Assembly (NCBI RefSeq): GCF_056746865.1
Contig: NZ_CM163382.1
Strand: one strand, 5' to 3'
Length of the DNA stretch: 64,000 bases
The notes beneath the pieces are model-generated. The model worked only from the letters and a program-made list of their open reading frames with translations. It did not search any database and was not told the origin of the DNA. Both the position numbers and the translations under genes were made by a program. Position 1 is the stretch's first letter; the number at the start of each line of letters is the position of its first letter. Shown piece after piece: positions 8,564 through 9,045 of the stretch.

Positions 8564-8776
8564 TTTCGTCTTCCTCTCAACGAGTGAGCTAGCTTGCTTA
8601 TGGTGCGATGCTGACAAAGTTATCACACCAATTTCCAGAGTCCGAAGATATTTTCGTGAGATAGATCAATAAACGTAGTTAAAAAAATTACTCTCAAAGT
8701 GGTAAATCTCGCTGCAGGCCGCGCCAGTACTGGCCTCGCTGTCGTCAGGTAATGTCCCTACAAATATTCCCACATT

Positions 8777-8792
8777 TGTGATGGCTCTCACC
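8777..8792. promoter_or_regulatory. Candidate CRP site in the uxaCA / exuT divergent control region
   Basis: tgtgatggctctcacc approximates TGTGA-N6-TCACA in the about 480-bp divergent intergenic region; role inferred from known cAMP-CRP control of hexuronate genes. Confidence 0.4.
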
Positions 8793-9045
8793 TTTTAAAG
8801 TTGTATGACAAGTTATCTTTCTGCCGTCGCAAATCATAAGTCGACGGAATGCAAATTGCCGATTCATTCATTTGTTAGATGAATCGGGTTAACCGGTACG
8901 GAAGCCGAATTAGCACGAAACTTTCATGGCAACGTTCGGGGCGTGCCGGTTTTTTTTCGGTTACCCGGTCGTAACTAACATCTTCAGCCTCTGGCGGGAT
9001 GATGGCCGCGCTTCCTGCGGATATAACAAAACGATGAGGTTTTAC

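Follow-up and report, generated by a model that had tools for sequence, protein, structure and literature searches.

Known hexuronate control regions and the uxaC-exuT spacer

ExuR is known from classical genetics as a repressor that is released by its inducer, and exuT and uxaCA are reportedly repressed by ExuR and activated by CRP. The region between exuT and uxaCA as it stands in RegulonDB/EcoCyc comprises a 22-bp CRP site (PMC5772556) and boxes of the ExuR/UxuR type (GntR family) in front of both transcription units. The divergent gntP-uxuAB region and the uxaB promoter are organized likewise, with a box for a GntR-family repressor over the promoter plus CRP, and related boxes were found there; the uxu boxes take the form TGGT-NN-ACCA with an even spacing, whereas those of exuT, uxaC and uxaB take the form TTGT-NNN-ACAA with an odd spacing. 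[quoted passage not shown]

The locus described here was analyzed within a 64-kb stretch of DNA (hereafter the window). In E. coli, uxaC and exuT are divergently oriented, and both the list of open reading frames and the RefSeq annotation of an identical region leave 482 bp between them (8564-9045). The original prediction had placed a spacer of about 480 bp at exactly this position, the ATG of uxaC ending at 8563 and that of exuT beginning at 9046. Compared with K-12, the spacer differs by two SNPs (8661 A/T and 8737 C/T), and it is found at an identity of at least 95% in 5419 of the 5426 complete E. coli genomes. It had been described as AT-rich, which holds only mildly (45.2% GC against 50.9% in the window), and its 3' half (8824-9045) has 48.6% GC.

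The spacer most likely consists of two unlike halves, a reading to which we assign a probability of about 0.8: positions 8564-8823 (~260 bp) are known hexuronate control DNA, and positions 8826-9045 are a 220-nt 5'UTR of exuT that folds into hairpins. The DNA part is the already known switch for hexuronate uptake and breakdown of E. coli; it does not differ from the RegulonDB/EcoCyc region, which is the same locus with the same CRP 22-mer, the operator coordinates given below having been derived independently. The annotation and the identity of the E. coli locus bear out a divergent control region for uxaCA and exuT. Its further description as an unusually large, multi-input promoter region is correct as to the inputs (CRP, ExuR and a CRP/FNR-like site bound by FNR) and not as to the extent, because the promoter and operator signatures all lie within 8564-8823 and the other ~220 bp behave as transcribed RNA selected for structure. 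That a CRP site and ExuR operators lie between uxaCA and exuT is already recorded in textbooks and databases, and their confirmation changes nothing; what deserves notice is the length of the spacer, for which a long leader RNA accounts. This RNA is conserved, has covariation in its favour and is absent from Rfam, and no description of it was found in the literature searched.

Control DNA upstream of uxaC and exuT

The features of the DNA part, with the evidence on which each is based, are as follows.

8561-8563, minus strand: start codon of uxaC (list of open reading frames; RefSeq annotation of the identical region)
8570-8576, minus strand: Shine-Dalgarno sequence of uxaC, GAGGAAG (read from the sequence)
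8608-8637, minus strand: putative uxaC core promoter with -35 TGGAAA (8637..8632), an 18-bp spacer and -10 CAGCAT (8613..8608) (read from the sequence)
8617-8633, no strand: uxaC-proximal ExuR-type operator AAGTTATCACACCAATT (two mismatches to AAnTTGTnnnACAAnTT)
8652-8673, no strand: weaker CRP/FNR-like site TTTCGTGAGATAGATCAATAAA, centre 8662.5 (CRP matrix, conservation, FNR ChIP)
8718-8734, no strand: conserved GC-rich element GCCGCGCCAGTACTGGC, of the form GCCGCGCCA-N4-TGGC (conservation)
8774-8795, no strand: CRP site ATTTGTGATGGCTCTCACCTTT, core 8777-8792, centre 8784.5 (matrix, conservation, database listing)
8798-8814, no strand: exuT-proximal ExuR-type operator AAGTTGTATGACAAGTT (no mismatch to AAnTTGTnnnACAAnTT)
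8814-8826, plus strand: putative exuT -10 TATCTT (8814-8819) and start near G8826 (inference and conservation)

The sequence TGTGATGGCTCTCACC at 8777-8792, which had been proposed as a plausible CRP site, agrees with TGTGA-N6-TCACA at 9 of 10 positions; five matches to this consensus with at most one mismatch occur in the 64 kb, against 1.78 expected. When the window was scanned with a 22-bp CRP matrix trained on 18 other CRP sites, 8774-8795 scored 16.05 bits, which ranks first among all window positions and is the same as the training-site median. The proposal is confirmed by this best match in the window and by the listing of the identical 22-mer as the CRP site of exuT in Table S1 of PMC5772556, where it is attributed to RegulonDB with Rodionov 2000 as the source. 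Eleven genomes were retrieved by means of their UxaC protein; in these, the half-sites TTTGTGA and TCACC are invariant and the 6-bp centre drifts. Among 96 unique upstream sequences, TTGTGAT is at least 97% conserved. Published experiments not resolved to the site include a 9.2-fold increase of exuT mRNA upon addition of 1 mM cAMP (PMC5772556) and the appearance of uxaC and exuT among the targets of CRP in genomic SELEX (PMC3105977).

The distance from the centre of the CRP site to the start of the -10 hexamer is 29.5 bp, which puts CRP at -41.5 from a start near 8826 and would make the exuT promoter a CRP-dependent promoter of class II, with TATCTT as its -10 element. The pattern TATNNT is kept in Escherichia, Pseudocitrobacter, Enterobacter, Pectobacterium, Serratia and Acerihabitans. 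The start sites of exuT and uxaC, and hence the promoter geometry, are those suggested by sequence features, and the supplements of Kim 2012 contain no entries for start sites of the two genes. Since hairpin H2 (see below) covaries as RNA, exuT transcription must begin upstream of 8859. RegulonDB may place the start nearer to the CRP site than 8826, since the location-based rule set of PMC5772556 had predicted repression at exuT.

The ExuR-type operators were located with AAnTTGTnnnACAAnTT, a 17-bp imperfect palindrome that was derived in this analysis rather than taken from a curated matrix and of which about 0.007 exact matches are expected by chance in the window. Four matches occur in the window, three of them in the exu locus; the third of these, at 10428-10444 upstream of exuR, has two mismatches. 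The exuT-proximal operator begins two bases 3' of the 22-bp CRP site and is invariant in the genomes retrieved through UxaC, that is, independently of the operator itself. The uxaC-proximal operator is invariant in the 11 UxaC-retrieved genomes and at least 97% conserved in the 96 unique upstream sequences. Upstream of uxaB there are two related boxes, and the 10-mer GTTGTATGAC also recurs there. Of the earlier proposal that several A/T palindromes could serve as ExuR/UxuR operators, the ExuR-type boxes stand, as two 17-bp imperfect palindromes rather than simple A/T palindromes; the UxuR half is weak, because UxuR alone did not bind the uxaC-exuT region in genomic SELEX, which selected only gntP/uxuA.

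Each box overlaps a putative core promoter, at -28 to -12 relative to the exuT start and at -32 to -16 relative to the uxaC start. At exuT, the operator would occupy the stretch from the CRP site to the -10 element, and ExuR bound there would sterically keep RNA polymerase out until an inducer derived from hexuronates frees the operator. Expression would accordingly call for both the inducer and low glucose, possibly with an anaerobic input. At uxaCA, transcription would start near 8601, and the operator would sit between -35 and -10. Of 11 Enterobacteriaceae, 9 retain the CAnCAT pattern of this -10; CATAAG at 8602..8597 may be an alternative.

A further input to uxaC would be the CRP/FNR-type site at 8652-8673, which a start near 8601 sets at -61.5. 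This conserved site scores 11.16 bits with the CRP matrix (rank 8 in the 64 kb), and Mangrovibacter has TGTGT-N6-TCACA in the same position. Similar to the hybrid sites mentioned above, it putatively combines a CRP-like left part (CGTGA) with an FNR-like right part (ATCAA): positions 8656-8669 read GTGAG-ATAG-ATCAA, which matches the FNR consensus TTGAT-N4-ATCAA at 3/5 positions of the left and 5/5 of the right half. The sequence TTTCGTGAGATAGATCAATAAA was proposed earlier as an FNR site beneath a ChIP-chip peak (PMC1802558), and an FNR ChIP-seq peak at uxaC/exuT has been reported with 'distinct FNR and CRP sites'; an FNR-dependent change of expression was not seen by Myers et al. in glucose medium (PMC3688515). 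Judging from the ChIP peaks, the site is probably bound by FNR in vivo, and CRP probably binds there too. How CRP and FNR inputs can be divided between two divergent promoters is exemplified by this region in compact, testable form.

Between these sites lies the GC-rich element at 8718-8734, conserved in the 11 UxaC-retrieved genomes as well as in the 96 unique upstream sequences. In 54 fetched loci, the exact pattern GCCGCGCCA-N4-TGGC is present once per locus at the same relative position, and the 64-kb window contains no other exact copy of the element. A sigma-54 promoter was considered and ruled out by the spacing, which is GG-N8-GC and not N10; no further motif match was found for this element.

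Hairpins and covariation in the probable exuT leader

The leader keeps the same modular hairpin fold in about 60 divergent sequences of Enterobacteriaceae. Its parts, all on the plus strand, are listed in order.

8824-8847, plus strand: hairpin H1, CCGUCG / CGACGG, followed by the conserved motif GGAAUGCA at 8846-8853 (single-sequence folds)
8859-8887, plus strand: hairpin H2, CCGAUUCAU / AUGAAUCGG (perfect 9-bp inverted repeat; covariation)
8891-8957, plus strand: hairpin H3, 8891-8900 with 8942-8951, inner CCGAAU / GUUCGG; in E. coli, U8 comes next at 8950-8957, which resembles an intrinsic terminator
8964-8975, plus strand: conserved C-rich element, consensus CCCUCCCGUUAC, in E. coli CCCGGUCGUAAC, a candidate anti-Shine-Dalgarno sequence (complementary to AACGAUGAGG)
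8979-9004, plus strand: hairpin H4, a two-part stem (folds and covariation)
9006-9020, plus strand: hairpin H5, CCGCG / UGCGG (covariation)
9036-9048, plus strand: exuT Shine-Dalgarno sequence GAGG (9036-9039) and start codon ATG (9046-9048) (annotation; AACGATGAGGTTTTACATG invariant)

When RNAalifold was applied to MAFFT alignments of whole leaders (61 sequences), the variable helices were misaligned and the structure collapsed to few pairs; this approach was replaced by counts on named structures, single-sequence folds, chimera tests and a covariance model. Hairpins H2, H4 and H5 show compensatory base changes, which in all three pass the shuffle and slid-partner controls. For H2 (54 sequences), 89% of cells pair and both sides change in 4 of the 5 pairs; in the sequence-only alignment, covariation amounts to 0.277 against 0.199 in shuffled data (0/500), with slid controls at 0.01-0.13, and the mean z-score is -2.9. 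H4 occurs in 46 distinct versions, all of which fold in the same place, with compensatory changes in 10/10 pairs of the model-fitted alignment, the signal being present already in the sequence-only alignment. In the latter, 86% of cells pair in H5, both sides change in 5 of its 6 pairs and in 40 cells, and its covariation of 0.304 compares with 0.159 after shuffling (0/500). Taken together, H4 and H5 yield 0.275 versus 0.189 shuffled in the sequence-only alignment and 0.398 versus 0.197 in the model-fitted one, where 16 of 17 pairs show compensatory changes, none of 500 shuffles scores as high and slid controls range from 0.06 to 0.13.

Hairpins assembled as chimeras from arms of different species are 3-3.5 kcal/mol less stable than the native ones, and the covariance model, run against 791 kb, yields a single match at each locus, always on the strand of exuT. 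Covariation was not detected in H1 and H3. H1 is predicted in nearly all single-sequence folds and is conserved mainly as sequence, with few compensatory changes; H3 (-24.8 kcal/mol, z -2.4) shows no covariation, though 85% of its cells are pairable, the sequence itself being conserved. A closing helix in which AUGCAU (8850-8855) pairs with the start codon proved to be an end artefact: it appears in most folds cut at +6 and in 4/61 when 24 nt of coding sequence are added.

Possible functions of the leader and alternative readings

With the ribosome-masking leaders in Rfam, the exuT leader shares the long 5'UTR, covarying hairpins, conserved single-stranded motifs and a complement of the Shine-Dalgarno sequence; in contrast to them, it matches 0/4227 models of Rfam 15, neither the E. 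coli spacer nor the Enterobacter cloacae version having a credible match at E<=10, and its E. coli form has a weakened anti-Shine-Dalgarno element and a lineage-specific U-run. The Shine-Dalgarno sequence is masked in 38 of 61 minimum-energy folds, in 25 of the 61 by the C-rich element 64-83 nt upstream. In E. coli, the C-rich element is degenerate and does not pair with the Shine-Dalgarno sequence, which is predicted to be open. In most relatives, pairing would occur between the C-rich element and the Shine-Dalgarno region, and H4 and H5 would serve as a clamp. As with every function considered here, we infer rather than observe the role of the leader, which most likely consists in setting or modulating the initiation of translation and/or the stability of the mRNA, the leading idea being that the ribosome-binding site is partly masked; in the Escherichia/Citrobacter lineage, H3 with U8 may additionally cause premature termination. 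On a bolder and decidedly tentative view, the leader would be a new riboregulatory element found throughout the Enterobacteriaceae (a sensor or a platform for proteins or small RNAs) that gates exuT translation, perhaps with read-through at H3 and U8 in E. coli, and a further regulator would have its site at 8718-8734. If this is true, the regulon, so far regarded as being under the control of ExuR/UxuR and CRP alone, would gain a post-transcriptional input. The uptake of hexuronates is important for gut colonization, and parts of the ExuR/exuT system serve in galacturonate and glucuronate biosensors; a post-transcriptional layer at exuT would, because of this role and use, affect both physiology and circuit design.

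Could the leader be an aptamer or a binding platform, that is, a riboregulator sensing a ligand or factor, either riboswitch-like or recruiting CsrA, Hfq with small RNAs or ProQ? The pattern in which the covarying hairpins H2, H4 and H5 flank unpaired or sequence-constrained conserved motifs (GGAAUGCA, GGUACGGAUACC, AUGGCAAGG and CCCUCCCGUUAC) is of this kind, GGUACGGAUACC presents GGA in a small hairpin, and the masking of the Shine-Dalgarno sequence in many relatives points in the same direction. The lack of a matching Rfam 15 family speaks against it, as does the fact that no data suggest a ligand or partner and that literature searches on exuT with CsrA or small RNAs returned nothing relevant; moreover, the same promoter is followed by unrelated leaders in other Enterobacterales, a finding that speaks against a universal sensor. 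This reading appears rather doubtful. A role of the E. coli leader chiefly as a transcription attenuator or a source of small RNA, with a stop at H3 and U8 (~8957), a ~130-nt RNA and regulated read-through, is unlikely as well. It would account for the stability of H3, its GC-rich base and the eight U residues directly after it, a run also found in E. albertii and Citrobacter-type leaders. However, the run is confined to leaders of the Escherichia/Citrobacter type, most other Enterobacteriaceae that share the leader having a second hairpin after H3 instead; a simple terminator scan made no call, the H3 loop exceeding the limit of the scan; Term-seq tables list no 3' end in the exuT 5'UTR, the promoter probably being repressed in the media used; and no competing antiterminator structure was identified.

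The two remaining alternatives deny the leader its status as untranslated RNA. If all 482 bp were promoter and operator DNA that receives many protein inputs, palindromes bound by proteins would account for the inverted repeats in 8824-9045; several of these repeats are indeed perfect or nearly so, H1 and H3 are conserved in sequence and not by covariation, and a sigma-70-like TCGGCA-18-TATGAT is present on the minus strand (8862..8833). Yet this is the sole match of the promoter scan, compared with 1.3 in shuffled sequence, and the sequences of H2, H4 and H5 vary freely while pairing is kept. Frequent G-U pairs (for example, 17/54 at one H2 pair) would be A-C mismatches on the opposite strand, and z-scores of the leader are more negative for the sense strand than for its reverse complement, all of which makes this reading highly improbable. 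Least credible of all, to the point of being practically dismissed, is a partly coding spacer, in which ExuT starts at the in-frame ATG at 8926, as in an old annotation of 472 aa, or a leader peptide starts there. The frame 8926..10344 is open in the window and ATGGCAA is highly conserved, but a leader peptide or a longer ExuT was rejected because only 8 of 61 leaders have this ATG in an open frame that runs into exuT, whereas 44 have it out of frame or cut off by a stop and 9 lack it. Indels in the leader are not multiples of three, and the ATG at 8926 has no Shine-Dalgarno sequence, whereas GAGG stands 6 nt before the ATG at 9046, the start given by RefSeq.

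Extent of the uxaC-exuT control region

The window derives from E. coli, and the spacer between the divergent uxaC (start at 8563, minus strand) and exuT (start at 9046, plus strand) spans 8564-9045 (482 bp), exactly the limits originally predicted; RefSeq annotates no features inside it. Apart from two SNPs (window 8661, A for T; 8737, C for T), it is identical to the spacer of K-12 MG1655 (NC_000913.3; K-12 coordinate = window + 3236178), and it is found at an identity of at least 95% in 5419 of 5426 complete E. coli genomes. The original prediction, an AT-rich and unusually long promoter region of 480 bp, holds for the underlying observation and for the presence of a CRP/ExuR control region, which is already known for uxaC-exuT. 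The AT-richness, however, is only mild (45.2% GC vs 50.9% in the window; 48.6% in the exuT-proximal 220 bp), and the length comes from a predicted 220-nt 5′UTR, not from extra promoter DNA.

Sequence elements in and near the spacer (window coordinates)
8608-8613, minus strand: inferred uxaC -10, CAGCAT (8613..8608)
8617-8633: uxaC-side ExuR-type box, AAGTTATCACACCAATT, two mismatches to the palindrome
8632-8637, minus strand: inferred uxaC -35, TGGAAA (8637..8632)
8652-8673: second CRP-family site, TTTCGTGAGATAGATCAATAAA, conserved
8718-8734: GC-rich element, GCCGCGCCAGTACTGGC, between the two promoters
8774-8795: CRP site
8798-8814: exuT-side ExuR-type box, AAGTTGTATGACAAGTT, exact match to the palindrome
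10428-10444: ExuR-type box just upstream of exuR, AAGTGGTATAACAAATA, two mismatches

CRP site, probable ExuR operators and a proposed FNR site

The CRP-like site proposed at 8777-8792 (TGTGATGGCTCTCACC) agrees with 9 of the 10 CRP core positions; cores with at most one mismatch occur five times in the window (1.78 expected). When scanned with a symmetrised 22-bp matrix built from 18 other CRP sites given in Table S1 of PMC5772556, 8774-8795 scores 16.05 bits, which is the highest score anywhere in the 64 kb and matches the training-set median. In 11 Enterobacteriaceae genomes, which were found via the UxaC protein and hence selected independently of the CRP motif, TTTGTGA and TCACC are invariant and the central six bases vary; fixed half-sites around a drifting 6-bp centre are characteristic of CRP sites. 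This one was already known: the same 22-mer, atattcccacATTTGTGATGGCTCTCACCTTTtaaagttgta, is given as the exuT CRP site with Rodionov et al. (2000) as the source, exuT mRNA rises 9.2-fold with 1 mM cAMP (PMC5772556), and uxaC and exuT are among the “known CRP targets recovered by genomic SELEX” (PMC3105977).

Comparison of the upstream regions of uxaB, exuR, uxuA/gntP and uxuR yielded a 17-bp imperfect palindrome, AAnTTGTnnnACAAnTT, common to the exuT, uxaC and uxaB regions. About 0.007 exact matches, such as the exuT-side box, are expected in the window. Both spacer boxes, separated by 181 bp centre to centre, are invariant in the 11 genomes, and the uxaC-side box, which was part of none of the search patterns used, is at least 97% conserved in 96 unique sequences. 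Given that spacing in the uxu-type boxes is even (TGGT-NN-ACCA) and that genomic SELEX with purified UxuR alone selected solely gntP/uxuA, the likely occupant of the spacer boxes is ExuR rather than UxuR. The box at 10428-10444, which follows the terminator hairpin of exuT (AAAGCCGCCTTCTCAGGCGGCTTTTT, about 10373-10398), is consistent with autoregulation of exuR. Similarity to the left half of the exuR-promoter box is also seen at 8696-8707 (AAAGTGGTAAAT); this sequence, conserved in Escherichia, Citrobacter and Enterobacter only, may be an auxiliary half-operator.

The second CRP-family site scores 11.16 bits with the CRP matrix (rank 8 in the window), and at the equivalent position Mangrovibacter has a better CRP core, TGTGT-N6-TCACA. 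Exactly the 8652-8673 sequence was proposed as an FNR site under a uxaC/exuT ChIP-chip peak (Grainger et al.; PMC1802558). Myers et al. reported an FNR ChIP-seq peak with “distinct FNR and CRP sites” and proposed co-activation by CRP and FNR (PMC3688515); their summit (3242850, older K-12 numbering) lies, by our arithmetic, about 13 bp from 8652-8673 if the 1977-bp difference in genome version length applies. The GC-rich element, conserved on both sides of a variable 4-bp centre (GCCGCGCCA-N4-TGGC), occurs in exact form once, at the same relative position, in 54 fetched loci, with no further exact copies elsewhere in the window. It resembles a site for a dimeric protein, and no matching regulator could be assigned.

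Proposed promoter geometry

Just past the exuT-side operator, TATNNT is conserved (TATCTT at 8814-8819 in E. coli; TATTGT or TATCGT in relatives, including Pectobacterium, Serratia and Acerihabitans), and the E. coli hexamer starts 29.5 bp from the CRP centre. This position suggests an exuT start near G8826 and a class II geometry with CRP at -41.5; the operator would then span -28 to -12. Position-based rules in PMC5772556 predicted “repressor” for exuT, so the database start may be closer to the CRP site than G8826. For uxaC, the best reading of the sequence combines the -35 and -10 listed (18-bp spacer; CAnCAT in 9 of 11 genomes) and would put the start near 8601, the operator between these hexamers at -32 to -16 and the 8652-8673 site at -61.5. 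Alternatively, CATAAG may be the -10, with a start near 8590 and that site at -72.5.

A conserved structured leader of exuT

Beyond about 8824, conservation switches to a pattern of jointly changing paired arms. Genome and metagenome scans with the promoter block provided 66 unique leaders of 195-250 nt, of which five were set aside as a different leader type. Folded singly, the remaining 61 form the same series of hairpins (H1-H5, 5′ to 3′) from very different sequences. In a sequence-only MAFFT alignment, H2 (8859-8887) is 89% paired, with four of five pairs changed on both sides and a covariation of 0.277 vs 0.199 when shuffled (0/500; slid-partner controls 0.01-0.13); H5 (9006-9020) is 86% paired, with five of six pairs and 40 cells doubly changed (0.304 vs 0.159, 0/500; slid controls 0.03-0.11); and H4 and H5 together reach 0.275 vs 0.189 (0/500) despite register shifts. 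The covariance-model alignment, structure-biased by construction, gives compensatory changes in 16 of 17 pairs of H4+H5 (155 cells; 0.398 vs 0.197, 0/500; slid controls 0.06-0.13). H1 (8824-8847) and H3 (8891-8951) are sequence-conserved and pairable (H3, 85%), with no significant covariation in either.

In 791 kb searched, the covariance model matches once per locus, on the exuT strand only, and loci of other leader types give no match. Chimeras joining 5′ and 3′ arms from different sequences are less stable than the native hairpins by 3-3.5 kcal/mol. Mean z-scores against dinucleotide shuffles (H2, -2.9; H3, -1.9; H4-H5, -1.6) are each below those of the reverse complement, and G-U pairs are frequent, which indicates that the exuT sense strand is the one that folds. 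The leader is a real conserved structured RNA. It has no match in Rfam 15, and the literature searched on exuT with UTR, CsrA or sRNA describes no leader.

An in-frame ATG at 8926 was rejected as the exuT start because it is not a conserved start. The ORF 8926..10344 corresponds to an obsolete 472-aa form of ExuT whose extension spans 8926-9045; this extension is open in 8 of 61 leaders, all Escherichia-type, so the frame is apparently open by chance, not selection.

Possible roles of the leader

In folds that included 24 nt of coding sequence, 38 of 61 minimum-energy structures have the Shine-Dalgarno GAGG (9036-9039) paired (mean unpaired probability 0.37); the start codon, at 0.76, is mostly open. 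In 25 of these 38 folds the Shine-Dalgarno sequence pairs with a conserved C-rich element (consensus CCCUCCCGUUAC) located 64-83 nt upstream, which places H4 and H5 inside the clamp. We favor a model in which the leader would tune translation initiation and/or mRNA stability; alternatively, it may be a regulated sensor or, in E. coli, an attenuator. The E. coli version of the C-rich element, at 8964-8975, has diverged to CCCGGUCGUAAC, and the Shine-Dalgarno sequence is predicted to be open there; H3 (-24.8 kcal/mol, z -2.4) instead runs into a stretch of eight U (8950-8957). This terminator-like arrangement of H3 and the U-run is limited to Escherichia- and Citrobacter-type leaders, and published Term-seq tables contain no 3′ end at it, the promoter being probably repressed in the media used; their sole 3′ end for exuT is internal to the ORF (K-12 3245945).

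Other Enterobacterales and other CRP sites

In other Enterobacterales, the CRP/ExuR promoter block is retained in front of sequence-unrelated exuT leaders of 143-383 nt (loci L013, L014, L019, L021, L085, L096, L118, L130, L133, L153 and others); thus, a long leader is general and its content lineage-specific. The 860-bp uxaC-exuT spacer of Rahnella inusitata (L018, about 2140-3000) carries the module of CRP site and ExuR box twice. Further top CRP-matrix matches in the window (10.5-14.7 bits) probably correspond to CRP sites already known for the operons listed below.

Further CRP-matrix matches, by K-12 spacer
31724-31745: tdcA-tdcR
32228-32249: tdcR-yhaB
39164-39343: garP-garD, three matches
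42887-42908: agaR-kbaZ
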